Source: an uncultured Candidatus Peribacteria bacterium (GTDB lineage: Bacteria > Patescibacteriota > Gracilibacteria > UBA1369 > LOWO2-01-FULL-3). From it: a DNA stretch of 48,509 bases. The notes below the pieces were generated by a model. The model made no database searches. It saw only the letters and a list, made by a program, of their open reading frames with translations, and was not told the DNA's origin. Each line of letters begins with the position of its first letter. The stretch's first letter is position 1. The stretch is from NCBI GenBank assembly GCA_964449945.1, contig CAYVBX010000008.1, positions 1 to 48,509 on the forward strand, in the 5' to 3' direction. This document shows positions 4,491 through 48,444 of this stretch, piece after piece. A program made the translations under genes and the position numbers.

Positions 4491-6020
4491 ATGACATATA
4501 AAATTTTTTCTTGCGGACTGATTGGATTAGATACTTTTTTGGTTGAAGTAGAGGCTTTTCTTTCCTCAGGTCTCCCACAATTCAATATAGTAGGTCTTGG
4601 AGATGCTTCAGTTCAAGAGGCAAAAGAACGCGTCAGAGCATCAATTAAAAATTCCAATTTAGAGTTTCCACAAAACAGAAAAACTATAAATTTAGCACCA
4701 GCAGAAAAAAGAAAACAAGGCGCTTTGTATGATTTCCCAATTGCAGTAGCGCTTTTAATTGCTTCAGGGCAGGTCTCAGATTTTCACATTAAAGAGTCAG
4801 CTTTTATAGGAGAGCTTTCTTTGGGTGGAGAATTAAAACCAATAAATGGAACACTCGCTATTACAGAGTTTTTAGCTAAAAAGAATTTTAAAAAAATATT
4901 CATTCCAAACAAAAATTTTGCTGAAGCTTCACTAATTAAGGACATTGAAATAATAGCACTAGATAGTCTAAAAGCCTTTGTTGACTATACAAAAAATCCG
5001 GAAAATTATCAAAACAAAACTCACTATGAATTTTCATCATCATTAAATAAGCAAAACAAGATTTTAGCCTTTCAAGGAATAGCAGGCCATGAATATGCAA
5101 AACGAGCACTTACAATATCGGCCGCAGGAAGTCATTCAGTTCTTTTAAATGGGCCACCAGGTTGCGGAAAAACTATGCTTGCCAGATCAATTTCACAAAT
5201 ACTGCCACCACTTACAAGTGAAGAAAAGCTTTTATCCACAAAAATATTTTCTATTGCGGGCAAGTTAAATCCTAAAACGCCAATTGTTTTAAACAGACCA
5301 TTTCGCGAAGTTAATCCCACCGCCTCATTGCCATCAATAATAGGTGGGGGAGCCACACATCCCAAACCAGGGGAAATCACTCTTGCGCACAATGGAGTAC
5401 TATATTTAGATGAGATACCTGAGTTTCCAAGAAGAAGTATTGAATCATTAAGACAGCCTTTTGAAGATAGATTTATTATAATAAATCGAAGTAATTTTTC
5501 TCTTTGTTTCCCCTCCAATTTTATACTTATTGCATCAAAAAATCCTTGTCCTTGTGGTTATAGAGGTTCAAAAAAGAAAACATGTACTTGTACTGAAACC
5601 CAAGTAAAAACTTATCAAAAAAGGCTTTCAGGGCCTATATTGGATCGTTTTGACATATTCCTTGAGCTTGAAGATCAACAAGTATTAAACAGTTTAAAAA
5701 AAGATTACAAAGAAGATGAAAATAAAGAAGATTATTTAAAATTGATAAAAAATGCTCTTGATAGACAAAAATTGAGATTTAAGAATGAAAAACTAATAAA
5801 AAGAAATAGCGAACTATCATTAGAACAAATTAAAAAATATTGTTCAATTTCAGAAAAAGCATTAAAAATTCTTGAATTAGCTGTTCAAAAATTAAATTTG
5901 TCTTCAAGGGCATATTTAAAAACAATAAGGATAGCAACCACCATACAAGACTTAGAATTGGCAGAAGAAATAACCGAAAAACACATTAGTGAAGCAATAC
6001 AATTTCGCCTTAGGGAATAA
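4491..6020 (+). CDS. comM: YifB/ComM family Mg-chelatase-like AAA+ ATPase
   Basis: 509 aa. Has an N-terminal Lon-protease-like domain, Walker A GPPGCGKT and Walker B LYLDEIPEF. Also has the CPCGY Cys cluster and the C-terminal helical domain typical of ComM/YifB. Confidence 0.9.
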   Translation: MTYKIFSCGLIGLDTFLVEVEAFLSSGLPQFNIVGLGDASVQEAKERVRASIKNSNLEFPQNRKTINLAPAEKRKQGALYDFPIAVALLIASGQVSDFHIKESAFIGELSLGGELKPINGTLAITEFLAKKNFKKIFIPNKNFAEASLIKDIEIIALDSLKAFVDYTKNPENYQNKTHYEFSSSLNKQNKILAFQGIAGHEYAKRALTISAAGSHSVLLNGPPGCGKTMLARSISQILPPLTSEEKLLSTKIFSIAGKLNPKTPIVLNRPFREVNPTASLPSIIGGGATHPKPGEITLAHNGVLYLDEIPEFPRRSIESLRQPFEDRFIIINRSNFSLCFPSNFILIASKNPCPCGYRGSKKKTCTCTETQVKTYQKRLSGPILDRFDIFLELEDQQVLNSLKKDYKEDENKEDYLKLIKNALDRQKLRFKNEKLIKRNSELSLEQIKKYCSISEKALKILELAVQKLNLSSRAYLKTIRIATTIQDLELAEEITEKHISEAIQFRLRE

Positions 6021-12752: not shown

Positions 12753-15700
12753 TTATTTCATATTAGCGTCTGGCCATGGACTGTGCAATCTCGTTAAAAC
12801 ATGGTCAGCTGTATAAGTATCAGAATAAAGTCTACTTGTATTTAGAGAATCGGCAATCATTTGAGCAGTGTTTCTCGAAATATTTATTTCTTGCCCAGTT
12901 CTTACTAAGTCTAAATTTCCATTTAATATAGGGTTTTCATTAAGTAATGCTTGTTTTATTGCAGGATTTGAATCAATTACTCTTGTTCCGTGTGTCATAT
13001 CAAGTTTATTTGCAATTGACTGCCAAATCCCAGGAGTTTCATCAATCTGAAGAGTAGGATCTACTAAAAGGTCTGCATTTCCTACATAAGGGCTGGAAAC
13101 TTTATCAGGAATTATTAGCTTTGCTTCATCAGAAGGAAAAGGCACAGGCAAAGGTTCAGGAGATGGAGCTGGTACAGGATCTGGACTTATCCCCCCACCC
13201 TCAACAGGAACAGGTGGCGCTTCTGAAAATAGCCAATCTTTTAAAGCAAAAATGCCAGGTAATCCAACACCCATAAATGTGCCAAGAGCAACTCCCGTTA
13301 GATGTTTTTTAGTATTACTTTTTCTAATTGCGACTTCTCTTTTTTCTATTGCGTCCATAAGTTTAGCTTCTTCACTGTAAACTTCATTTAATACTTCCAT
13401 CATACTTGTGCCAGTAGCAAAACGATTATCAATTAAATTTCTCATTCTTTGATTTTGGTTTGCAAACAACTCCCTTGAGCTAGCTTGCCTATAATAATTT
13501 GTATCACTAGGTTTAGCTGTTGTTTCTTTATAAGCTTCCCCAAACATTGCGTTTAGATTTGGATTTTCTGCTTGATCAAAGCTTTTATCACTAACTGGAC
13601 GAACAAGAACATCCATTGGCATATTTGCTGGTGAAACTCCTGTTCTAATGTCGAAAGGTTGACCTTTCTCGGATAAAGCAAGTGTCGTTTGAGCCGCCAT
13701 AGCTTCTCTAATTTGATCAGGAGTCATTGCGGAAATTTTTGTTCTATCAAGTCTTTTTGTTTTTCCAAAACGATTTCTAATACCTTCCCATCCAGCAGTC
13801 CATCCCATATATGTTGAAACACCTCTAAGAACAGCACCCGCAGTGGCAAATGTGCCAATTGCTAAGGCAGGAGCACCCAGCATCGCACCAGTTAGTGCAA
13901 CTCCCATACAAGTCGAAGCGCCAATAAGTCTGAGTCCCTTTTTATTCCTCCAGCCATTTCTAAATTTATTAAAACCTCTGCGAATAAAGCCTTCTTGTGT
14001 TGTTTGAGCCCTTAATTCTTCATCAAAAAGATCTCTTCTTTCACTGTTTAATAATTCTAAAATCCTATTTCTCCTATCAACTTGTCTTTGTCTTATTTTT
14101 TCTGGACTTCCATTAAAATCGCTTTCTGGAAATTCATTTTGAATTTGATTATAGCTGTAATCTCTCATGGCAACTAGATAATCATCTTTACTATCATTTA
14201 ATTCATCTTGCTTTGGCCTACTAAACCACATCCATTTTTGAAGATTTCTTCTGTTTTTAGCATACTTTTTTCGAGCATTTTCCATAGGCCGTCTTTCGGC
14301 TTCGGCAGGATTTATCATAATTGGCTGGCCATTAGGACCCATCTTTGGTCTACCAGTCGAAGGATCTATTTCGGGTACTAAAGTATTTTCTTCAACTCTT
14401 GGCACAAATACAGTATTCAAAGCAGTTAAAGCTTTATAAGACTTTGCCAAATTTTCCTCCATATCGCTTGCACCGGGGAAAGATCCCACGAAGAGGGGAG
14501 TAGCAGTTCCATTTGCGGTATTATATTTTTTTTCTAAAATATTATATAGCCTTCTCGCTCGATCTTCAGCAGGTCTAGCAGAAATATTCCTATAGTTTTC
14601 AGAAATATCCTTAATTAAGTCATTAAAAGATTGAATATTTGTGTTTATTTCAGTCAAAAGTTCAATATCAGAGTTTTGTTCAGGCGATCGATTACCCTCT
14701 GGGATATTTCTAAGTACATCATATCTTTCTCGAATATAATCATAAATATTATTATAGCCTGAAAGACAGTCATTAAAACTTACAATATTATTTTGAATGA
14801 ACGACCTAAGCAAAGGATTTGGCCTAAAACCAGCATTCATTACTTGAGTCAAATTTAATGTATATCCATGATTCTGGAGAGCTCTATGCATAGAAATATC
14901 CTGAAGCATAGAAATATCTGTAATGTTTCCATATTTTCCTGCTATTTCTTTGAATTTCAAATAAAGTACATGATTTGTATTTGGGTTATTTAATACAGTT
15001 TCGAGTTGAAGCCTATATTCATATTTATTTAAAGCTCCATAAGTAGGATCTACCCTCATCAGTTCTTCAACAATTTTTTCACAATTTGGCATAAACGGAA
15101 TAAGCATCGTATTGATTTCAGTATCAGAAAGTCTTTTTCTTGGATTTTCAGCAAAACGAATTTCAGTACGAAGAGCTCTTATTTTACTTGCAATATCCCT
15201 TACGATATCAGTTCGATCTCTTCTATTAAGTGGAAGATATAAAACTTGAGCAATTTCATCTAAAGTAAAGGCATCAGTCGTTAAAAGCCTTTGCAAAGCT
15301 CTTTCAGATGCATTGTCAACATCATCATTTGTAAAAGGAACATGAAGACCAAGTGCTTGATTCCTAATAGCTTCATAAGTCCGATCTCTAACAACTGTAT
15401 TAATTCGATTAATATGCGCATTATGAGAATCAATAATTGAAGGAGCTTGGTTTAAGAATTGTTCAATAACATTTCTTAAATCTGCTTCTTCAATTGGAAG
15501 TGTAGCTGGAGTAGCTATTGTACCTGCCGTCAGTTCTGAATAGAAAAATCTATAGGCATTTGTCATTCTTTCATTTTCATTATCTCCATAAAGGCCATTC
15601 TCCGTTATTTCAGAGATATAAGAACTAATTATTCTATTAAGTGCATCAGGATTTGCAGTAAAATCTTCTGTATTATTGTCAATTAATTCATTAATTCTGT

Positions 15701-16811
15701 TTCTAAGCCCATTTTGAATATCGACAGAAAGAGCTTCCTGCCAAGTTCTTAAATGATCAATTACATTTTGTCGAGTATTATCTTGTTGATATACATGATT
15801 TGCATCATAGGCAACTCTCAAATTAAACAATCTTGCAAGCCTTCGAGTCCTTTCTTGGCCAGCAGTTGTACCGGTTCCAATTGGCCCAAGTTTCGTTCTA
15901 ATTTGGTTTATCAAAGCACTTCTTTCGGGACTAACAAAAGAGGCCGTAATTGGACCATCAGTAATCAGCAAATCAACTAGCTCGCTATGATCAAATGATA
16001 TTAGCTCGCTTGTAAGATTATCCCTAAGTTGATCAACAAATAGCCTAGCTTGATTGATTTCTCTTTGCTCTATTGAATCTCTCCCCCCCCAAGCGTTATA
16101 TTGTTTTTCAGACTCTCTAATTATATTAGATATAAGTACTCCTCTAGCAGGGGTTAAATCAATAGCTAAGATACTATCAATGGTTCTTTCTATTTCGGCT
16201 GGTGAAAGATCAGTATAATTTGGGACAGAAGCAAATCCAACCACTTCAGCAAATGCAATAGCACGGTCTTGGTTTATCAAAATATCCGGAAAAACATAAT
16301 TATTATTATAAAAACCAACAAGAATATCTCGAATTTGAGTGGTATTAAGAGGTCTTCCACCATTTCGTTCATAAGCCTCTTGCAAATAAGTCGTAAAAAT
16401 TTTCCGCCTAAGATTACGCATTATTATATCTGGGTCAGTACCTGGTCGAGAATTAATTTCATTTTCAAGATCAGAAATTCTCTCTATCAATGCCCTTCTT
16501 GTAATAGTATTCACTTTTTGTCTCAGTTTCTTTCTATCATTATTAAGACGATCTATTTCAGCTTGATCAGTTGTGTCAACCGTTAAGTTGTTTATAGCAT
16601 TAATGATGCTGGGTAGTTGTTCAGAAAAATCAATAGAGGAAATAGCACTTGCAGTACTTGTCGTACGCAATATATTCAGTATGTTATTCCTAACGGCTGG
16701 ATTATTCAATTCATCAACTAATTTATCCTTTATCCGATTTTCCGCATCTTGACTTTCCGAATTATCATTAGAGAGTAATTGTTCTAAATCTTTATTTTCA
16801 ATATTTGCCAT
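12753..16811 (-). CDS. Giant (1352 aa) membrane protein with a Pro-rich linker and LysM-like C-terminal domain
   Basis: Uninterrupted 4 kb ORF with no signal peptide. A hydrophobic hairpin GASTCMGVALTGAMLGAPALAIGTFATAGAVL lies at about nt 13795-13945. A third TM helix LTGVALGTFMGVGLPGIFAL lies at about nt 13240-13310. The linker PPVPVEGGGISPDPVPAPSPEPLPVPFP follows. The C-terminal GIWQSIANKL...NPILNGNLDLVRTGQEINI resembles a LysM fold pattern. Confidence 0.8.
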   Translation of the reverse strand: MANIENKDLEQLLSNDNSESQDAENRIKDKLVDELNNPAVRNNILNILRTTSTASAISSIDFSEQLPSIINAINNLTVDTTDQAEIDRLNNDRKKLRQKVNTITRRALIERISDLENEINSRPGTDPDIIMRNLRRKIFTTYLQEAYERNGGRPLNTTQIRDILVGFYNNNYVFPDILINQDRAIAFAEVVGFASVPNYTDLSPAEIERTIDSILAIDLTPARGVLISNIIRESEKQYNAWGGRDSIEQREINQARLFVDQLRDNLTSELISFDHSELVDLLITDGPITASFVSPERSALINQIRTKLGPIGTGTTAGQERTRRLARLFNLRVAYDANHVYQQDNTRQNVIDHLRTWQEALSVDIQNGLRNRINELIDNNTEDFTANPDALNRIISSYISEITENGLYGDNENERMTNAYRFFYSELTAGTIATPATLPIEEADLRNVIEQFLNQAPSIIDSHNAHINRINTVVRDRTYEAIRNQALGLHVPFTNDDVDNASERALQRLLTTDAFTLDEIAQVLYLPLNRRDRTDIVRDIASKIRALRTEIRFAENPRKRLSDTEINTMLIPFMPNCEKIVEELMRVDPTYGALNKYEYRLQLETVLNNPNTNHVLYLKFKEIAGKYGNITDISMLQDISMHRALQNHGYTLNLTQVMNAGFRPNPLLRSFIQNNIVSFNDCLSGYNNIYDYIRERYDVLRNIPEGNRSPEQNSDIELLTEINTNIQSFNDLIKDISENYRNISARPAEDRARRLYNILEKKYNTANGTATPLFVGSFPGASDMEENLAKSYKALTALNTVFVPRVEENTLVPEIDPSTGRPKMGPNGQPIMINPAEAERRPMENARKKYAKNRRNLQKWMWFSRPKQDELNDSKDDYLVAMRDYSYNQIQNEFPESDFNGSPEKIRQRQVDRRNRILELLNSERRDLFDEELRAQTTQEGFIRRGFNKFRNGWRNKKGLRLIGASTCMGVALTGAMLGAPALAIGTFATAGAVLRGVSTYMGWTAGWEGIRNRFGKTKRLDRTKISAMTPDQIREAMAAQTTLALSEKGQPFDIRTGVSPANMPMDVLVRPVSDKSFDQAENPNLNAMFGEAYKETTAKPSDTNYYRQASSRELFANQNQRMRNLIDNRFATGTSMMEVLNEVYSEEAKLMDAIEKREVAIRKSNTKKHLTGVALGTFMGVGLPGIFALKDWLFSEAPPVPVEGGGISPDPVPAPSPEPLPVPFPSDEAKLIIPDKVSSPYVGNADLLVDPTLQIDETPGIWQSIANKLDMTHGTRVIDSNPAIKQALLNENPILNGNLDLVRTGQEINISRNTAQMIADSLNTSRLYSDTYTADHVLTRLHSPWPDANMK

Positions 16812-30762: not shown

Positions 30763-31716
30763 ATGAAAAAAATACTAATAACAGGAGCAACTGGACAAAT
30801 CGGAACAGAGCTAATTCTTGAACTAAGAAAGAAATATGGCGTAGAAAATGTTATTGCAGTAGGGCATTCAAGGCCTGCAAGTGGAGATCTTTCAATAGGT
30901 CCTTTCGAATCTTGTGATGTCACAAATTTAAAAGAACTAGAAACTTTATTTCAAAAACATAGTCCAGACACAATTTTCCATTTAGTTGGAATCCTATCTG
31001 CAACCGGTGAAAAAAATCCAGATTTAGCTTGGAATGTAAACATGAACGGACTAAAAAATGTATTAGATTTGAGTCTAAAATATTCAGTAAAAAAGATTTT
31101 TTGGCCAAGCTCAATCGCTTCATTCGGTCCAAACACACCAAAAGAAAACACCCCACAACACACAATTTTAGAGCCCACAACAATGTACGGAGTCACAAAA
31201 GTAGCTGGAGAATTACTTTGTCAGTATTATTTCAAAAAATACAACTTAGACATAAGAAGCATTAGATACCCCGGAATCATAAGCTACAAAACATTACCCG
31301 GAGGAGGCACAACAGATTACGCAGTCGCAGTTTATTTTGAAGCACTTGAAAAAAAATCATACGAATTTTTTGTAAACGAAGACACAGTTTTGCCAATGAT
31401 GTATATGCCAGATGCAGTATCCGCAACAATCGATTTAATGGAAGCCCCAATCGAAAATATTAGTATTAGAACAAGCTACAATCTCACAGCAATGAGCTTT
31501 TCGGCAAAAGAACTTGCAGAAGAAGTAAAAAAACATATTCCAGATTTCGCATATTCTTTTAATCCAGATTCAAGACAAGAAATTGCAAATTCATGGCCAA
31601 AATCAATAGACGATAGTTTTGCAAAAAAAGATTTTAATTGGATTCCAAAATATGATCTCACAAAAATGTCAGAAGATATGATAGAAAATATCAAAGCCTT
31701 GAACACGAAAATCTAA
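30763..31716 (+). CDS. Extended short-chain dehydrogenase/epimerase, L-threonine 3-dehydrogenase-like
   Basis: 317 aa with the Rossmann motif ITGATGQIG and catalytic YGVTK (YxxxK). The N-terminal KILITGATGQIGTELILELRKKYGVENVIA is typical of the SDR-type TDH/UDP-sugar epimerase subgroup. Confidence 0.7.
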   Translation: MKKILITGATGQIGTELILELRKKYGVENVIAVGHSRPASGDLSIGPFESCDVTNLKELETLFQKHSPDTIFHLVGILSATGEKNPDLAWNVNMNGLKNVLDLSLKYSVKKIFWPSSIASFGPNTPKENTPQHTILEPTTMYGVTKVAGELLCQYYFKKYNLDIRSIRYPGIISYKTLPGGGTTDYAVAVYFEALEKKSYEFFVNEDTVLPMMYMPDAVSATIDLMEAPIENISIRTSYNLTAMSFSAKELAEEVKKHIPDFAYSFNPDSRQEIANSWPKSIDDSFAKKDFNWIPKYDLTKMSEDMIENIKALNTKI

Positions 31717-32573
31717 ATTTTCTCACATAAATAATAAGCATCACGATTAGTTCCCTTCCGGATGCTTTTTATTGTACCAGGAAATAAAATCAGTAAATTT
31801 TTTTTATTAGGAGCCTTATATTTTTTCAAATTATCTTCAGCAATCGTTTCTGAAGGCCTTATATCCATAAAAGACTTGTAGTTTTTCAAATAATTTATTG
31901 TCTTAAAATCTTTAACAATTTGTCTTTCTAAAGTTTTTAGTTTTATAGGAGATTTTTTAGAAATTTTTCGCTTAAAATTTGCCATTTCAAGTTCTTGCAA
32001 CAAAATTTTCGCACAAGAAACTGAAATATCTTTAGTACTTTTATTCTTATGCCTCCCACACTCAACAACAATTCCAATTTTACCTTTTGGAAGACAATTA
32101 AGAGTTGTGCCTTTCAAAAATCTTGCAAAATTTTGAACATCATATTCAACTGGAAGTTTCGAAATAATTTCTCGACTTTTTTTATTCGGATAAAAACAAA
32201 TTGAAAACGGAACAGAAGCCTTACTCGTGGAATGTAAATCCAAAACAACATCCATTTTTTTTAGTAATTTCATTATTTCCATCGCTCTTTTGTACTCAAA
32301 AGAATTAAAATCAAAACCTTCCGGGTAGTCAGATTTTTTTTCAAAAAAAATTCTATTCATATCATATTTAATTCCCCGAATCTCTCTCTTGGATGCCAAA
32401 TAATTTGCATTAATCAAAAAAACTTTTCCTGAATAAAGAGGATTTTTCTTAAAAAACTTTATTAAAGCATCATGTGCATATTCACCAGCAGGCTCATCCC
32501 CATGCACTCTAGCTAAAATTGCAACAGAAAGTCCTTTTTTCTTTCCTTCAATAATTTTTACATTTTTAATCAT
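31713..32573 (-). CDS. Succinylglutamate desuccinylase/aspartoacylase (AstE/AspA) family zinc deacylase
   Basis: 286 aa. ILARVHGDEPAGEYA (HxxE zinc motif) and VVLDLHST are typical of this M14-related family. It overlaps the convergent SDR gene by 4 nt. Confidence 0.7.
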   Translation of the reverse strand: MIKNVKIIEGKKKGLSVAILARVHGDEPAGEYAHDALIKFFKKNPLYSGKVFLINANYLASKREIRGIKYDMNRIFFEKKSDYPEGFDFNSFEYKRAMEIMKLLKKMDVVLDLHSTSKASVPFSICFYPNKKSREIISKLPVEYDVQNFARFLKGTTLNCLPKGKIGIVVECGRHKNKSTKDISVSCAKILLQELEMANFKRKISKKSPIKLKTLERQIVKDFKTINYLKNYKSFMDIRPSETIAEDNLKKYKAPNKKNLLILFPGTIKSIRKGTNRDAYYLCEKI

Positions 32574-32632
32574 AATATCCTCTTGATTTTATGAATTTTA
32601 TGAGATAAATAAACAATCGTTTTAAAGAAAAT

Positions 32633-34192
32633 ATGCACCCTAGAACATCAAATATTATACCAGATTTTGCATGTGAATTAAAGCCTCAAGGCTATTTTCA
32701 AGATGATATCGTGAGATTTAAAGATTTAAGCAATAACGAAGAATATTCAATTATCTTTGATAGTAACGGAGAATTTGAAAGATTAAATACGGAAGTTTTT
32801 GATTTGGTTTTAGAAAATAGAACCTTTCTATCTCAACATACAGATTTTTTGGATAATACTATAAAGAGGCCAAAAAATGGAGGGATAGTACATTTTTGCA
32901 ATGTTCTTGAGGTAAATATTACAGGAAAAGGTGGGGGAATAAATCCGGGAATAAAGGGAATTTCTTCATATTTATTTAGACAAGGTCCAATGCTCTCTTC
33001 AAAAGATGGTCTTATTATCAGTAAAGAAGCTGTTTTAAAGGCAAGGGAAAACCTAAGATATTTAAATGAAAAAGGCATAGATGTGATAAAAGAAGAAAAT
33101 GTTTTTGGAATAGAAATAGATGAAAATTCAACAATAATTAGAGATAAAGGAATTGAAGAATTACAAGGAATTATGGAAGAAAGACACGAAACCTATAAGT
33201 TTTTACCATTTATTCATACAGAAAAAATGGCAAAAACTGCAGAAAAAATTGGATTTGACTATACGGCAGACATAACAGCCACCAGCTTATTAACCGATAA
33301 ATTTTATGTTTTAAAAACATTACCAAATTTTTCTGTTAAAACAATTTTTGGAAAAGAGTTAAATAGTGTAAATGATTTAGAGTTGGCACGAATGAATCCC
33401 GTTATTAGTGCTCAAGAATTCGTTGTTTTAAAGTTGCGAGATGGTGCTTCTGGACTCGGAGTTCGTTTTGTAAAAAACAATTATTCAGAAGTGTTAAAAA
33501 ACCTAGTAGAATTAGGAGAGCCAGATGAAAGGGGAGTTTTAAAATACACCGTAAGAATAGAAGAATGTTTGAAAACTTTATCATCTCCAAGCGCAGGCTT
33601 ATACATTTCAGAAAATGAAATAGTATTTTTAGGTTTTTCAGACCAGTTTTTTGAACAAGCAGAAGATAGCTCAAAACCTCCCAAAGAACACATGGGCAAT
33701 ATAGGTCCTTCTAGTTATGAAAATTTGATTAAAACAACATCTGTAAAAGTCGGAGAATTTGCCAGAAAATTAAACTATACTGGCTTTCTGGGAGTAGATT
33801 ATGTTTTAATTGAAAACCATGATAAATCTGTAGAACTTCGAGTTGCAGAAATTAATCCACGACTAGGGGGTCCATCAACAGCTTATCGAATCGCTTATGA
33901 TCATCCTCTTGCTATATCCAAAAATCAATCATTTACAGGTTTAGGTTTTTCTGGAGGAAACTTAGATATCTCAATAGATCACCAAAAAAAAAGTATCTAT
34001 CATTTGGACAAAGATTTAAATAAAATTTTAACGAGTGTTTCAAGTGACATCTTCGCTGTTATTACGAATATGCTTCCTATTGAATATGGCAGAATACAGA
34101 TTGCAGTTTTTGGAAAAAACCCAGAGAATATAAGAAAAGCTTATAGAAAAGCACAGAATTATTTCTGTCCAAACCATAAATCTAATATATAA
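32633..34192 (+). CDS. ATP-grasp ligase with an about 230-aa N-terminal domain of unknown function
   Basis: 519 aa. FVVLKLRDGASGLGVRFV and VAEINPRLGG are classic ATP-grasp elements. The N-terminal third has no motif I recognise. Confidence 0.7.
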   Translation: MHPRTSNIIPDFACELKPQGYFQDDIVRFKDLSNNEEYSIIFDSNGEFERLNTEVFDLVLENRTFLSQHTDFLDNTIKRPKNGGIVHFCNVLEVNITGKGGGINPGIKGISSYLFRQGPMLSSKDGLIISKEAVLKARENLRYLNEKGIDVIKEENVFGIEIDENSTIIRDKGIEELQGIMEERHETYKFLPFIHTEKMAKTAEKIGFDYTADITATSLLTDKFYVLKTLPNFSVKTIFGKELNSVNDLELARMNPVISAQEFVVLKLRDGASGLGVRFVKNNYSEVLKNLVELGEPDERGVLKYTVRIEECLKTLSSPSAGLYISENEIVFLGFSDQFFEQAEDSSKPPKEHMGNIGPSSYENLIKTTSVKVGEFARKLNYTGFLGVDYVLIENHDKSVELRVAEINPRLGGPSTAYRIAYDHPLAISKNQSFTGLGFSGGNLDISIDHQKKSIYHLDKDLNKILTSVSSDIFAVITNMLPIEYGRIQIAVFGKNPENIRKAYRKAQNYFCPNHKSNI

Positions 34193-43357: not shown

Positions 43358-44497
43358 TTATTTCACCAAACTCTCGGCAATCTTCTCAGCAATTCCTGAT
43401 GTAAACGGATCGGGGATAATATTTTCTGGAGACAAATCTTCGACCATTTCCGCCAGAGCCTTCCCCGCATTCAGCTTCATTTCATCTGTAATTTGGGGGA
43501 TTCGATATTTTAACGCACCTTTAAAAATTCCCGGGAAAGCCAAAACATTGTTTACCTGATTTGGAAAATCGCTCCTACCACTAGCCACAATATATGCTCC
43601 AAAGTCTTTTGCTTCATTTGGTAAAATTTCAGGCTCTGGATTCGCAAGCGCAAAAATAATCGGTTTTTCCGCCATACTTTTTATCATCGCTTCATTTATA
43701 AGTTTCGGCTTTGAAACACCAATAAAAATATCAGCCCCAATTAGTGCATCAGTTAGACTTCCTGATTTTTTTTCAGGATTTGTTATTTTAGCGATTTCAA
43801 TTTTATTTTCATCAAGCTTTTCTCGCCCCTCAAAAATTAGGCCTTTACTGTCAATCATATTTACATTCCTAAAACCATACCGCACAAGAAGCCTTGCAAT
43901 AGCACTTCCAGCCGCACCCGTTCCCGAAATCACCACTTTATTTTCCTTTAGAGTTTTTCCAGTAAGTTTCAAAGAATTTATAAGACCTGCAAGAACAACA
44001 ATTGCAGTCCCGTGTTGGTCATCATGAAAGACAGGAATATTAAGCCGTTTTTTTAGCTCGTTTTCAATGTAAAAACAATTCGGAGATGCGATATCTTCAA
44101 GATTTATTCCACCAAATTGCCCCGAAATCGACTCAACTATTCGGATAAATTCATCCGGATCTTTGCTATCAACGCAAATCGGGAAAGCATCAATGTCTCC
44201 AAATTTTTTAAAAAGCACAGCTTTTCCCTCCATTACAGGAAGCCCCGCAAGAGCGCCAATATTTCCAAGACCAAGTACAGCAGAACCATCTGTGATTACA
44301 GCAACCATGTGGCTTTTCATCGTATAATCGTAAGCGAAAGAGGGATCTTTTTGAATTTCACGACAAGGCTCCGCGACACCCGGAGTATAGTAAATTTGTA
44401 AATCTTCACGAGTTTCAAGTGGCACACTCGGACAGATATTAATTTTTCCTTGAGATTGCCTATGCTTTTCAAGCGAGAGCTCGTATATGTTTTTCAT
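43358..44497 (-). CDS. NAD(P)-dependent malic enzyme (short form, no PTA domain)
   Basis: 379 aa. YTPGVAEPCREI, AVITDGSAVLGLGNIG, the NAD-binding ISGTGAAGSAIA and NNVLAFPG are typical of MaeB-type malic enzymes. Confidence 0.9.
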   Translation of the reverse strand: MKNIYELSLEKHRQSQGKINICPSVPLETREDLQIYYTPGVAEPCREIQKDPSFAYDYTMKSHMVAVITDGSAVLGLGNIGALAGLPVMEGKAVLFKKFGDIDAFPICVDSKDPDEFIRIVESISGQFGGINLEDIASPNCFYIENELKKRLNIPVFHDDQHGTAIVVLAGLINSLKLTGKTLKENKVVISGTGAAGSAIARLLVRYGFRNVNMIDSKGLIFEGREKLDENKIEIAKITNPEKKSGSLTDALIGADIFIGVSKPKLINEAMIKSMAEKPIIFALANPEPEILPNEAKDFGAYIVASGRSDFPNQVNNVLAFPGIFKGALKYRIPQITDEMKLNAGKALAEMVEDLSPENIIPDPFTSGIAEKIAESLVK

Positions 44498-44533
44498 TTT
44501 ATTTCTGTTATTGTGAGGCTAATTTTAATCTTA

Positions 44534-44584
44534 TTTTTATGACTATTCAACCAGGAATTTATCGCCATTTTAAGGGCAAAAACT
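44534..44584 (+). repeat. Copy B of the 51-bp direct repeat, covering the start of the intact DUF1653 gene
   Basis: See 42011-42061. This copy continues into a full-length ORF. Confidence 0.9.
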
Positions 44585-44760
44585 ACGAAGTGATTGGAAT
44601 AGCCCATCACAGCGAAACACTTGAAGAGCTTGTCGTTTACCGCGCCCTTTACAGCTCTCCCGACTTCGGCGAAAACGCCCTTTGGGTCCGACCAGTCAAA
44701 ATTTGGGAGCAGGAAGTGGAATTTGAAGGGAGGAAGTTTAAGAGGTTTGAAAAGGTTTAA
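44539..44760 (+). CDS. DUF1653 family protein
   Basis: 73 aa. YRHFKGKNYEVIGIAHHSETLEELVVYRALY is the hallmark pattern of DUF1653 as I recall it. Confidence 0.7.
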   Translation: MTIQPGIYRHFKGKNYEVIGIAHHSETLEELVVYRALYSSPDFGENALWVRPVKIWEQEVEFEGRKFKRFEKV

Positions 44761-44796
44761 AAAATCGAAATACATAATCTTCTAGAAATTTGAAAA

Positions 44797-46107
44797 TCAA
44801 AAAAACACTTTTATATTTTCTAAATTCTCAGCTAGAAAACTATCTAAATTTATTGATTGATTTAATATGTAATCAGATGGATTTTTTTCTGTTTTTCCAA
44901 GGATTTTTCCATATGCATCATAAATTAAATTATCATTTATTTTCATATAAAAGACAGGTATTTGACCATGTAATAAAGAATTGACTTCATATTTAAGAAG
45001 TCCTTCCATATCCAAGCTACAATTAAGATAAATCTTATTTTGTAAAAGTTCTTGCCTAAAAAATTTTTCAATTGAAAAACTTTCTTGTAAAAAAATATGT
45101 GGGAAAAAAATTTTTTGTTGCAAAATAAAATATATTGAAGTGGGTCTAAGAATAATTCTAGTGTAAGACTTTGATTTTTTTATTTCGGTCAACAAATTAT
45201 CTTTATTTAATTGTAATTGTTTTGAGCCAGTTTCAAATCCAGAAATCAACATTGCTAAGAAGTCTTTAATTTGAATTCGCTTATTTTGCAACTTCGGCCT
45301 ATTAAAATAATGATTCTTGCTAATTGACACCCAATTAATTTTCGGATTTGTATTATCAAATTTTAGTATTGGCACGAAATAACTTTTTATTTTTTCACTT
45401 TCTCCATTTAATGACCCGATATTTATATCTTTACTTTCTGTAATTAATCCTGTGTAAAAAATTGAATATTTTTCATCAATTATTTCAGGTACAGCACAGG
45501 TTTCTATATCAAAAAATAGTGGATATTGTTTATTACATATTACATTTTCAATATGCTGGTCTATTGTCCTAAAAAACAGTAAAAACGGAATTATTCTACC
45601 AAAATTAAAATAATACTTTTCTATATCATTTATGTTTTCAAAATCATTTGAAGCCGAAATGAAGTCTCTTACAAAAAGATTATTATAACATTCGAATTTA
45701 ACAAAATACTCGGAAAATTTTGGATCAAGAATTTTTAATAATTCGGGTATGAATGATTCACAGTCAAATTTTGCGGGAAAAACAATTTTATTGCCAATTT
45801 TCGTTTTAATCAAACCATTTGGGTGTATATCTCCCAAAAATTCAATATTGGAATGGAAATCTTTTATTAATTTTTTTTCAGATTTATATAAATACTTTAT
45901 GAAATTCCAGACAATCTTATCAACAATAAAATTTTGTTTTGTTGATATTTTAGGGAAATAACGAGAGCTTACAAACAAAGGTAAATACCAATCTTTTAGT
46001 TGTTTGAATATAAATTTTTTTGTGTTTTCAGTAAAATCAAAAAAGGAAGTCCGAAAAAATTTATTTTCCAGACTTCCTTCCATTTCTATTTCCAAGTCTG
46101 ATTTCAT
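44797..46107 (-). CDS. Stand-alone LanM-type (DUF4135-like) lanthipeptide dehydratase domain protein, with no LanC cyclase domain
   Basis: 436 aa. Motifs: FLGDIHPNG...IVFPAKF; IDQHIENVICNKQYPLFFDIET (D-x-H-x-x-N then D at +12; nt 45499-45564); TGLITES..NIGSLNG; ISGFETG; TRIILRPTSIY (R-x5-T; nt 45130-45159); GQIPVFY. The order and spacing match the kinase/lyase domain of class II lanthipeptide synthetases. Confidence 0.75.
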   Translation of the reverse strand: MKSDLEIEMEGSLENKFFRTSFFDFTENTKKFIFKQLKDWYLPLFVSSRYFPKISTKQNFIVDKIVWNFIKYLYKSEKKLIKDFHSNIEFLGDIHPNGLIKTKIGNKIVFPAKFDCESFIPELLKILDPKFSEYFVKFECYNNLFVRDFISASNDFENINDIEKYYFNFGRIIPFLLFFRTIDQHIENVICNKQYPLFFDIETCAVPEIIDEKYSIFYTGLITESKDINIGSLNGESEKIKSYFVPILKFDNTNPKINWVSISKNHYFNRPKLQNKRIQIKDFLAMLISGFETGSKQLQLNKDNLLTEIKKSKSYTRIILRPTSIYFILQQKIFFPHIFLQESFSIEKFFRQELLQNKIYLNCSLDMEGLLKYEVNSLLHGQIPVFYMKINDNLIYDAYGKILGKTEKNPSDYILNQSINLDSFLAENLENIKVFF

Positions 46108-46114
46108 ACAAACC

Positions 46115-46258
46115 CTATTCTATACAAGTACCAGAACCACAACCCTTGGTCGAAGCTGCGTAAGTAACCTCTTTAAAAAGTAACTCAGCTTCTTGAAAAT
46201 CCTTAACGGCAACTGCTTTATCATAAACATTGTTTTCAAAATCATTCAAGTTTTCCAT
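46115..46258 (-). CDS. Unannotated 47-aa candidate lanthipeptide precursor MENLNDFENNVYDKAVAVKDFQEAELLFKEVTYAASTKGCGSGTCIE
   Basis: The ATG lies 2 nt after the upstream stop, and the TAG lies 7 nt before the dehydratase ATG. An acidic, helical leader-like N-terminus is followed by a C-terminal 16 residues holding 5 Ser/Thr and 2 Cys in (S/T)xxC spacing. Confidence 0.6.
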   Translation of the reverse strand: MENLNDFENNVYDKAVAVKDFQEAELLFKEVTYAASTKGCGSGTCIE

Positions 46259-46260
46259 AT

Positions 46261-46725
46261 TTATTTTGTTAATAAATAATAGGATGACATTTTTTTCGGA
46301 CTCATTTCATTTACAATATCCATAAGCTCTTTTTCATCATCAGAAAGCTCGATTGTGATTTTTGATGCATTGTTGCTTTTTAAAAAATTCAACGCATGAG
46401 TAAATAATAGTTTTCTTACTTCAGAAGAATTTGGAGATTTTTCTGTCGAGTCATTTAGCAACAATACTAATATTTCCCCTCGATTATTTTGATTAAGAAC
46501 ATTTACAAATCCCAAAAAATCAATGTCTCCTGTATTTTCTCTACATACAAAATAAGAAAAATCAGAGTGTGTATTCATAATTCTTTCCATTACATGCTTT
46601 TTCATTATTTCCAAATCCGAAGTGTAATAATCTAAACCTAAGTTTTTGTTCAAATACTGATAATGAATACTTAGTAGTTCAGCAATTTTATGAGAGTCTG
46701 TAACAAGAGCTTTTTCTATTATCAT
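46261..46725 (-). CDS. Hypothetical protein, possibly a divergent GNAT-fold acyltransferase; first gene of the RiPP-like operon
   Basis: 154 aa. The layout (FLGFVNVL...GEILVLLLN...VRKLLFTHALNFLKSNNASKITIEL) is GNAT-like, but the acetyl-CoA Q/RxxGxG/A motif is not evident. Confidence 0.4.
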   Translation of the reverse strand: MIIEKALVTDSHKIAELLSIHYQYLNKNLGLDYYTSDLEIMKKHVMERIMNTHSDFSYFVCRENTGDIDFLGFVNVLNQNNRGEILVLLLNDSTEKSPNSSEVRKLLFTHALNFLKSNNASKITIELSDDEKELMDIVNEMSPKKMSSYYLLTK

Positions 46726-46784
46726 ATAATGAAGTTGGTTAAAATTACCTACAATATATATTTTGGCTCAAAAAACCACAAATC

Positions 46785-46799
46785 TTTTTTTTTTTTTTT
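46785..46799. repeat. Homopolymeric T15 (A15 on the minus strand) tract in the promoter region of the RiPP-like operon
   Basis: 15 consecutive T at 46785-46799, 60 nt upstream (minus-strand sense) of ATG 46725. Confidence 0.9.
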
Positions 46800-46988: not shown

Positions 46989-47321
46989 CTAAAACACAAA
47001 AGACAATTGTTCTTTAATCTTTCTAAACTGCATCATTGAAACACTACTCACTCTTTTTATTAACCTAGTTTTATCAATAGTTCTCATCTGAAAAAGCAAA
47101 ATCAATGAATCAATTTTAAGACCGCTAATGTTTTTTTCAAGAAAGAAAGTTGTGAAAAAACCTTTTCCTGAGGTGTTTGAAGTAATTGGCGCGATTATTA
47201 CGGTATTCAGATTTTTATTTAAATCATTGTTTTGAATAACTATTCCTGGTCTTATTCCGGACTGTTCATGTCCTTTAATCGGATTTAAATTAGCCAAATA
47301 TTATTCACCCTGTTTAATCAT
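46989..47321 (-). pseudogene. mazF: MazF/PemK-family toxin interrupted by an in-frame TAA at codon 7
   Basis: From ATG 47321 the frame reads MIKQGE-TAA-YLANLNPIKGHEQSGIRPGIVIQNN.... This matches the canonical MazF N-terminus (M.K.GEIYLA.LNP..G.EQ.G.RP) except for the stop at 47301-47303. The track ORF restarts at TTG 47297. Confidence 0.6.
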
Positions 47322-47322
47322 A

Positions 47323-47553
47323 TTAATCGATTTTACTTTGTATTAAATCCCAATTATCCTCATTGGGCAGATCGTCAAATTTCATTTTTGCAAGTTTTTT
47401 CAAATCACTATTCAGTTTTTTCTTAAACATTTCTTTGATGGCTTTTTCAACCAGTTGACTTTTTGAAATACCAGAATTTAAGCTAATTTTCTCAAGAGTC
47501 TCATTAAGTGACGGCATAATAGTAATGGATATTCTCTCTTTTATATTACTCAT
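47323..47553 (-). CDS. Ribbon-helix-helix (CopG-like) antitoxin
   Basis: 76 aa. ERISITIMPSLNETLEKISLNSGISKSQLVEKAI has an RHH pattern (beta strand followed by two helices). Its stop lies 1 nt before the toxin ATG. Confidence 0.7.
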   Translation of the reverse strand: MSNIKERISITIMPSLNETLEKISLNSGISKSQLVEKAIKEMFKKKLNSDLKKLAKMKFDDLPNEDNWDLIQSKID

Positions 47554-47607
47554 CTGTTCGTATTAATTGATATTACCTTAAAGTTTGCGTAAAAACTCAA
47601 GGCACTT

Positions 47608-48444
47608 TCAAACATTCATTCTACTAAGCGGACTCACCGTATTTGAGATCCCGCTTCGCGAAACTTTTGTATAAAGCTGGGTAGTCTGAATATCCCGATG
47701 CCCCAAAATTTCCTGAATGTATCTAAGGTTTGTGCCGTTCTCTAAGATATGCGATGCAAAGCTATGCCGAAGACAATGGAACGAGGCAAGCTTGTTTGCA
47801 CCTGTCTTAAATACTGCCCTACGAAAGACAATCTGAAGGGTCCGACTAGTCAAAATTCCACCACGATTACTCGGAAACAAAAACTCATTTTTATCCCGAT
47901 TTTGCGTAAAATTTTTAAGCTCATCTCTCATTGTTTCCGGCAAAATTGTAATTCTATTACGATTGCCCTTTGCCTGTCTGACATTGATTATTTTTTCTGC
48001 AAAATCCAGATCTGAAATTCTCAGTTTAACAACTTCACTAACCCGAAGACCGCTCCCATAAGCTAATGAGATAGCAAGCCGATGTTTTGTGTTTTTGAAC
48101 GATTGAATAATTCTAAAAATTTCCTCACGACTCAAAACAACGGGAAGTTTCAATGTCGTTTTAGCATGTCGCACATTCATTTTTTTCTCATAACCAATAA
48201 CATCGCGATAGAAAAACTTCACAGAATTTATGTAGAGATTGATAGTTTGCGGAGAAAGTTTTTTGTCGAGCAGATGGGAGACAAAGGACTTAAAACTAAA
48301 TTCATCATAGTTCTTAAGCGAAAATTCCTTAAACTCAAAATATTTTTTCGCATAGGCAAAATAATTAGCCTGAGTATAACGACTATAATTTCGAATCTTC
48401 ATCTCAAGTTTTAATAGTTGAAGGCACTCATCAATCTCAGCCAT
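47608..48444 (-). CDS. Tyrosine recombinase/integrase (XerC/D-like)
   Basis: 278 aa. An N-terminal SAM-like core-binding domain is followed by the catalytic residues: GLRVSEV (R), HCLRHSFASH (H-x-x-R) and LGHRDIQTTQLYTKV (H...Y). Confidence 0.85.
   Translation of the reverse strand: MAEIDECLQLLKLEMKIRNYSRYTQANYFAYAKKYFEFKEFSLKNYDEFSFKSFVSHLLDKKLSPQTINLYINSVKFFYRDVIGYEKKMNVRHAKTTLKLPVVLSREEIFRIIQSFKNTKHRLAISLAYGSGLRVSEVVKLRISDLDFAEKIINVRQAKGNRNRITILPETMRDELKNFTQNRDKNEFLFPSNRGGILTSRTLQIVFRRAVFKTGANKLASFHCLRHSFASHILENGTNLRYIQEILGHRDIQTTQLYTKVSRSGISNTVSPLSRMNV

Follow-up and report, generated by a model that had tools for sequence, protein, structure and literature searches.

Positions 1 to 48,509 of contig CAYVBX010000008.1 of an uncultured Candidatus Peribacteria bacterium, a stretch referred to below as the window, carry on their minus strand a 47-codon open reading frame (ORF) running from ATG to TAG at positions 46115..46258. 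This ORF is a real, strongly conserved gene, always linked to and translationally coupled with two partner genes. We favour, with a probability of roughly 55%, the reading that it encodes a LanA-like precursor which, together with a GNAT-fold protein and a mini-LanM enzyme, makes up a self-contained three-gene cassette for a peptide made on ribosomes and modified after translation (RiPP), working through the steps proposed below. The product of the ORF is MENLNDFENNVYDKAVAVKDFQEAELLFKEVTYAASTKGCGSGTCIE. The operon consists of three genes, all on the minus strand: the first encodes a GNAT-fold accessory protein of 154 residues (46261..46725), the second the putative precursor peptide, and the third a putative stand-alone LanM-type dehydratase of 436 residues reduced to the DUF4135 kinase/lyase domain (44797..46107). 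The peptide ATG lies 2 nt past the TAA of the first gene and 7 nt separate its TAG from the ATG of the third. Five Ser/Thr and both Cys are found in the last 16 residues, and the peptide contains no GG or GA motif. A preliminary description made from the DNA alone had already reported the ORF coordinates, the two gaps, the Ser/Thr/Cys tail and the missing GG/GA, and all of these match the sequence; it had also called the ORF unannotated, which holds for an ORF track with a 60-residue cutoff but not for public metagenome gene calls, where the 47-residue product is listed. On its own such an ORF is unremarkable, because short ORFs are frequent in DNA of about 30% GC and the window contains dozens of them in the range of 30-60 residues; conservation is what decides.

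In order to assess this conservation, 13 distinct loci were gathered through the closest homologues of the enzyme and their contigs, scans of genomes and metagenomes, a peptide profile search, a search with the 154-residue family and two representatives of the wider family. The order GNAT-fold gene, small ORF, DUF4135-only gene was found in 13/13 loci and in at least seven flanking contexts, with GNAT-fold proteins of about 145-157 residues and DUF4135-only proteins of about 435-465 residues. The named host lineages are Candidatus Peribacteria, Saccharibacteria, Dojkabacteria and metagenome-assembled genomes of the 'Patescibacteria group'. Flanks vary from one locus to another (integrase/MazEF and malic enzyme; GluRS; tsaD and enolase; 7TM-transglutaminase/ATP-grasp genes and rplL; uvrA and uppS; a ferredoxin-like gene), and since the flanking genes are unrelated between loci, the three genes must be regarded as a conserved unit. 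Synteny and dN/dS, the two checks proposed in the preliminary description, both came out in favour of its claim of a genuine peptide gene coupled to a LanM-type dehydratase gene: the small ORF sits at one and the same place in all 13 loci, and comparison with locus L012, whose enzyme is 66% identical, revealed purifying selection on the peptide gene (25 nt differences, 17.6 synonymous and 7.4 non-synonymous, dN/dS 0.05). The ratio ranges from 0.04 to 0.06 within the Peribacteria clade, to which the window belongs, and from 0.12 to 0.45 within the Saccharibacteria-type clade. A six-frame search of short ORFs for C[AGS][ST]GTC, covering the window and 23 loci (L001-L023), returned one match per cassette-bearing source, always in the same slot. 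Where the cassette has decayed (L027/L028), a joint deletion took away the peptide core and almost all of the enzyme gene. The idea that we are dealing with a chance ORF without product, to which the abundance of short ORFs at 30% GC lends some colour, is refuted by these comparative data: 13 loci have kept the ORF, with peptide identity falling as low as about 25%, synonymous changes make up 70% of the differences to L012, and the core motif is invariant.

Two loci deserve a description of their own. The decayed cassette (L027 8438-8849 and L028 1210-1513) retains an intact GNAT-like gene, while its peptide ends before the core (MKEVTGLAELETIEQELKANFLF*) and its DUF4135 gene is reduced to about the last 40 codons. 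In L005 (contig SRR28923679_163407), a close relative, an in-frame TAA near codon 77 of the DUF4135 gene, at about position 860, leaves an N-terminally truncated called product of 347 residues, so that either the gene is a pseudogene or the assembly is wrong there.

None of the 13 peptides could be assigned to a known precursor family by Pfam or by NCBIfam. Their anatomy became readable through two distant members, which carry the canonical ELxxGG double-glycine leader of class II lanthipeptides: L029, with the leader-core sequence MQELLIATGFLEFIENLPELELIGG-SGESTSTCCASGTR, and L030, with MELLLSELPPETYALAVELGLIEFASILPEIELLGG-TRSTTTCCATGTC. Their motifs ELELIGG and EIELLGG align to AELLFKEV of the window peptide, and because the GG falls on E30-V31, the leader probably comprises residues 1-31 (MENLNDFENNVYDKAVAVKDFQEAELLFKEV; 46166..46258, minus strand), which are acidic and include an E-x-E-L-L motif, and the core residues 32-47 (TYAASTKGCGSGTCIE; 46118..46165, minus strand), which hold S36-T37-K-G-C40 followed by S42-G-T44-C45. 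This putative split agrees with the leader of about 31 residues and the 16-residue core proposed earlier. Peptides of the Peribacteria type end in ...EVTYAAS[T/G]KGCG[S/T]GTC(IE/N), those of the Saccharibacteria type follow M.E.TGL.EL..IE.ELK.NF...TT[K/T].C[A/G][S/T]GTC[S/D], and the whole family shares the C-terminal pattern [S/T]-[S/T/G]-x-x-C-[A/G]-[S/T]-G-T-(C). In the 13 aligned peptides C40, G43 and T44 are invariant and C45 nearly so; the position four residues before C40 (S36 in the window peptide) is always Ser or Thr, whereas position 37 is Ser/Thr except for Gly in two close relatives, so that T37 is not conserved. The two-ring spacing suggested by the preliminary description is thereby retained for the second ring, [S/T]42-G-T-C45 being conserved, but not for the first as it was drawn: T37-x2-C40 relies on a non-conserved Thr and the pattern is better read as S36-T37-x-x-C40. 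Similarly, the window peptide does lack a GG motif, but its leader logic is not wholly unusual, since L029 and L030 carry GG at the homologous site; the missing GG reads as a lineage-specific loss from a double-glycine-type leader. Residues past C45 vary, and they appear dispensable because a 1-nt indel changes the frame in L005, whose peptide ends in ...GTCN instead of ...GTCIE.

The 436-residue protein matches PF13575 (DUF4135) with an E-value of 1.2e-26. It covers positions 210-490 only of the 932-position LanM model TIGR03897, with 105 bits for a cut-off of 304, and the profile of its family aligns with residues 245-583 of CylM (5dzt, E 2e-22) and also with LicM2. The N-terminal 150-200 residues or so of full-length LanMs are missing and the protein ends at residue 436, with no cyclase domain. 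At E < 1e-30 an exhaustive HMMER search gathered 67 clusters (50% identity), whose length is 425-477 residues in nearly every case, and full-length LanMs surfaced only at E > 1e-25; the short DUF4135 proteins form a distinct and sizeable clade and are not products of truncated genes. A second DUF4135-only group of about 490-550 residues (P0102, P0106, P0108, P0110, P0113-P0122 and others) has scores intermediate between those of the short clade and those of full-length LanMs. A tblastn search against plasmids and phages returned only canonical lanM genes of about 24% identity and no mobile-element relative.

We then set 58 short-family members against 12 full-length LanMs, using the roles in phosphorylation and elimination that were assigned to CylM residues in the CylM structure paper (PMC4550811). 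The four residues of phosphate elimination (CylM D252, H254, R506 and T512; D93, H95, R317 and T323 in the window protein) are invariant or nearly so, with D in 58/58, H in 57/58, R in 57/58, and T in 51 with S in 7. The phosphorylation residues D347, N352 and D364 (window D183, N188 and D200) are likewise invariant or nearly invariant, and H349 (window H185) is variable, with 30 Asn and 14 His. K274, the Lys of the 'YKP' motif involved in ATP activation, has no equivalent in the window protein and is absent from the short family, as judged from sequence alignment alone. Two residues are specific to the family: K101 (54 K and 4 R of 58), located one strand earlier than the K274 position, and the invariant R147. 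We speculate that they may compensate for the lost Lys; in CylM itself, the K274A and H349A mutants kept some activity (PMC4550811). The kept elimination residues favour a dehydratase over a plain kinase, and LanM dehydratase domains, once excised, are reported to work by themselves and to suffice for dehydration (PMC10676384). We infer that the 436-residue enzyme is a LanM-type dehydratase without the cyclase half, with dehydration of the peptide as its predicted activity.

On this basis, we propose that the acidic leader (residues 1-31), descended from the double-glycine type, docks the peptide on the DUF4135 enzyme, possibly with the assistance of the GNAT-fold partner. The enzyme would phosphorylate Ser/Thr of the core with ATP and then eliminate the phosphate to give dehydroalanine (Dha) or dehydrobutyrine (Dhb), as the dehydratase domain of LanM does. 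Cys40 would then add to Dha36 and Cys45 to Dha42, an addition presumed to be controlled by the substrate because no cyclase is encoded. S36-T37-K-G-C40 would provide a Dhx-Dhx-X-X-Cys motif, Dhx standing for Dha or Dhb, and S42-G-T-C45 would close into a four-residue ring, the product being a small two-ring (methyl)lanthionine peptide, while leader removal and export would depend on functions encoded elsewhere in the genome. Cyclisation at Dhx-Dhx-X-X-Cys is substrate-controlled in cytolysin (PMC8163290), and this motif closes spontaneously both in cytolysin S in vitro and in the LanC-free triantimycin pathway (PMC11186320); such documented closure gives a concrete rationale for a system without cyclase.

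A number of points weigh against this proposal. Non-enzymatic cyclisation was excluded for ProcA peptides (PMC8163290), and both the dehydration and the ring formation of our peptide are predictions made by comparison with known systems. The canonical ATP-activating Lys (K274, 'YKP') is missing across the family and the H349 equivalent varies, so that the chemistry of the enzyme could differ; its AlphaFold2 model, built from three sequences, has a pLDDT of 51 and is too poor for use. L029 carries an Arg instead of the second Cys (C45), and most relatives use Thr. The contribution of the GNAT-fold partner is limited to candidate roles. Finally, no cyclase, protease, exporter or immunity gene was found in any examined flank.

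A first alternative is one which we consider improbable, though not strongly so: the same cassette would dehydrate its peptide and release it as a linear dehydro- or phospho-peptide, with the Cys free, joined in a C40-C45 disulfide, metal-bound or otherwise modified, DUF4135 acting purely as a dehydratase as in dehydrazoles. The absence of a cyclase everywhere we searched, the second Cys lacking in L029 and the use of Thr rather than Ser in most relatives are compatible with it, Dhb being less reactive. There is also a precedent in CcaM, the dehydrazole enzyme, which introduces eight dehydro residues without forming any lanthionine (PMC10676384). However, both Cys and the spacing of Ser/Thr are kept over phylum-level distances, a Dha or Dhb located three to four residues from a free thiol tends to cyclise, and the conserved [ST][ST]xxC is the very motif reported to close spontaneously (PMC11186320, PMC8163290).

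Another way to account for the missing functions is a split canonical pathway, in which genes located elsewhere in the genome would supply a cyclase of the LanC type and a protease/exporter of the LanT type, the product being an ordinary class II-like lanthipeptide. Class I systems do employ a separate LanC. The double-glycine leaders of L029 and L030 imply a C39-type peptidase somewhere, and the analysis covered partial genomes. The searches nevertheless speak against such a split, which we hold to be unlikely. For the rest of the window, Pfam annotation points to housekeeping genes; neither LANC_like nor Peptidase_C39 nor a dedicated ABC exporter is listed, and the same families were likewise not found in the Pfam tables of about 10 different flanks of relatives. 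A hidden Markov model (HMM) built from 12 LanM cyclase domains, which recovered 12/12 positive controls, gave 0 matches in the window and 30 loci (316 kb, partly redundant). In addition, the cassette travels as a unit of three genes, and genomes of the candidate phyla radiation (CPR) measure about 1 Mb. The term lanthipeptide used in the preliminary description has thus to be qualified: a precursor-like gene does stand beside that of a LanM-type dehydratase, but thioether rings are a prediction, since a LanC-type domain is absent from the enzyme, from the 48.5-kb window and from the flanks of all relatives.

The third obligatory partner, overlooked in the initial reading of the locus, is the GNAT-fold protein, present in 13/13 loci. 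The 154-residue window protein has no Pfam match of its own; its relatives give weak matches to Acetyltransf_1/_4, and the family profile reaches GNATs in the PDB at E 2e-4. Its AlphaFold2 model has a pLDDT of 89.7, and the top Foldseek matches of this model are all GNAT acetyltransferases (prob 1.0, TM 0.58-0.69). The acetyl-CoA pyrophosphate motif Q/RxxGxG/A between beta4 and alpha3 (QRKGVA in 9mto) is degenerate, the aligned residues being d-E-K-E-V-A; no Gly is conserved at this site among 24 members of the family, and the window protein carries an 8-residue insertion there. Conserved residues lie mostly in alpha1, alpha2 and beta2-beta3 of the predicted secondary structure. In the general GNAT topology these elements line the acceptor site, where the conserved residues of the partner would accordingly sit. 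Candidate roles are binding of the leader or substrate, N-acetylation with an atypical cofactor site, or immunity. The possibility that the partner is a split-off N-terminus of LanM was rejected, hhalign against the N-terminal region of full-length LanMs giving no relationship (prob 0.2% for the GNAT-fold family and 1.1% for the N-terminal 90 residues of the enzyme).

A kinase fold paired with a GNAT fold raises the question of whether the peptide belongs to a RiPP pathway at all. It could instead be a regulator, an antitoxin-like partner or a phosphorylation substrate of this pair, within a toxin-antitoxin or defence module of the integrase/MazEF/restriction island. GNAT toxins exist, the canonical kinase Lys is missing, and in the window the cassette adjoins integrase and RHH-MazF genes, with restriction-modification genes further on. 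We regard this as very unlikely: PADLOC gave no match for any of the three proteins, in the other 12 loci the neighbours of the cassette are housekeeping genes (tsaD/eno, rplL, uvrA/uppS), the family conserves R506/T512, elimination residues for which a plain kinase would have no need, the GNAT-fold protein has a degenerate acetyl-CoA motif, and the peptides are built like RiPP precursors from leader and core, with a GG leader in some relatives.

The RiPP cassette that we favour shares many features with class II lanthipeptide systems (LanA/LanM, as in CylM/cytolysin and LctM/lacticin 481). Its putative dehydratase is homologous to the N-terminal DUF4135 part of LanM. It retains the D/H of the P-loop, the catalytic DxHxxN (the His of which varies across the family) and D, and the R...T pair used in elimination. 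The gene directly upstream is that of the precursor, whose acidic leader has ELxxGG counterparts in relatives, and the core, rich in Ser/Thr/Cys, contains Dhx-Dhx-X-X-Cys as in cytolysin. It differs in that the enzyme has 436 residues compared to 900-1100 and no fused LanC-like zinc cyclase domain, the defining feature of the class. The N-terminal region of about 150-200 residues and the 'YKP' Lys are lost and family-specific Lys and Arg residues are present, the GNAT-fold partner is obligatory, no LanT, immunity or regulatory gene is found in the window or flanks, the hosts are CPR/Patescibacteria, and the TIGR03897 score is far under the cut-off. Dehydrazoles, made by CcaM ('LanMbC') and a YcaO protein (PMC10676384), offer another example of a divergent DUF4135 domain at work in a RiPP pathway, again one that can do without a LanC cyclase of the zinc type. 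CcaM, however, has about 1015 residues, is fused to a Zn-less class III-type cyclase domain needed for activity, and does not rely on the leader, while its only substrates are azole-containing cores that a YcaO has produced (PMC10676384). Our enzyme is single-domain, and neither YcaO nor class III-type cyclase families were found by Pfam in the window or in any flank. Class V(a) clusters (LanK/LanY/LanX; cacaoidin, lexapeptide and triantimycins) also lack a LanC homologue, and their (methyl)lanthionine rings close spontaneously under substrate control (PMC11186320), whereas ring closure is only presumed here. Dehydration in these clusters relies on an APH-like kinase and a HopA1-like lyase unrelated to DUF4135, and the clusters are actinobacterial and include extra tailoring enzymes; no LanK/LanY-type enzyme was found here, the only enzyme-like partners being the DUF4135 and GNAT-fold proteins. 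In nisin, ring A joins Ser3 and Cys7 and ring B Thr8 and Cys11. The i->i+4 and i->i+3 rings predicted here would resemble these A and B rings of nisin/epidermin-type lantibiotics, with one extra residue between the rings and no further C-terminal part, and those peptides are made by class I LanB/LanC enzymes.

We found no account of a DUF4135-only/GNAT/peptide cassette, or of lanthipeptide-like systems in CPR bacteria, in open-access papers and bioRxiv, and the clade of about 67 clusters at 50% identity is undescribed in the searchable literature. Surveys of lanthipeptides begin from LanC-like proteins (PMC7268733), and a survey of DUF4135 dropped sequences of less than 500 residues (PMC10676384). 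The cassette was probably overlooked because mining is anchored on LanC or excludes DUF4135 proteins below 500 residues, and it exposes a blind spot in current lanthipeptide mining. If our proposal is true, three genes and about 2 kb would suffice for a minimal lanthipeptide or dehydropeptide route without cyclase, which would be attractive for engineering, and the dehydratase half of LanM would prove capable of evolving into an enzyme in its own right, paired with a new partner protein. CPR bacteria, with genomes of about 1 Mb, live attached to host bacteria and are thought to be biosynthetically poor; a dedicated natural-product pathway would be added to their repertoire. One may go further and imagine, although we find this doubtful, an unrecognised synthetase architecture spread across the CPR. 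It would combine a stand-alone LanM kinase/lyase of about 440 residues with a relocated catalytic Lys, a GNAT-fold subunit without acetyl-CoA motif serving as leader/substrate-binding or ring-directing partner, and rings set purely by the Dhx-Dhx-X-X-Cys core; this would be the smallest known lanthipeptide pathway, used by ultra-small epibionts against their hosts or to signal to them.

Directly downstream of the peptide gene, within codons 9-25 of the DUF4135 gene, we detected an 18-bp hairpin followed by a U-run (46031..46081, minus strand; -28.3 kcal/mol, z -5.8), flagged as terminator-like. The same structure with a different stem sequence, the changes being compensated, is found at the corresponding place in L012 (about 4774-4815) and L005 (about 660-700). 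It is absent in other clades, where the peptide stop overlaps the enzyme start. Hairpins of this kind are described downstream of lanA genes in lantibiotic operons. The hairpin is possibly a leaky terminator or attenuator enriching the precursor mRNA and, in the Peribacteria clade, it would probably keep this mRNA more abundant than that of the enzyme. Upstream of the 154-residue gene, a consensus scan of the 263-nt intergenic region revealed no sigma-70-like promoter; this region contains a run of 15 A at 46783-46797 (minus strand).

The surroundings of the cassette show several other features. An integrase gene (278 residues), an RHH antitoxin gene and a MazF/PemK toxin gene lie directly upstream at 46989-48444 (minus strand), and type I/II restriction-modification and HNH genes follow past the window end (L006 1-7353); the cassette borders a mobile or defence island in the window genome and not in relatives. 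Downstream and convergent with the operon is a plus-strand DUF1653 gene (44539-44760, Pfam E 5.7e-26). A 93-residue minus-strand ORF (44494-44775), which some gene callers would place in the operon, overlaps this gene and is probably spurious. Further away, the window holds a 1352-residue ORF at 12753-16811 (minus strand), equivalent to L014 1098-5156, which has no Pfam match in the precomputed table, and for a 618-residue ORF the look-up gave no entry on record. At 31713-34192 an AstE/AspA-like gene stands beside the gene of a 519-residue ATP-grasp_3 protein. In L001 (1-5288) a 7TM-transglutaminase gene and four ATP-grasp genes abut the cassette and possibly form a second peptide-modification system; a 7TM_transglut gene is encountered again 6 kb from the cassette in L024 (15812-16477).

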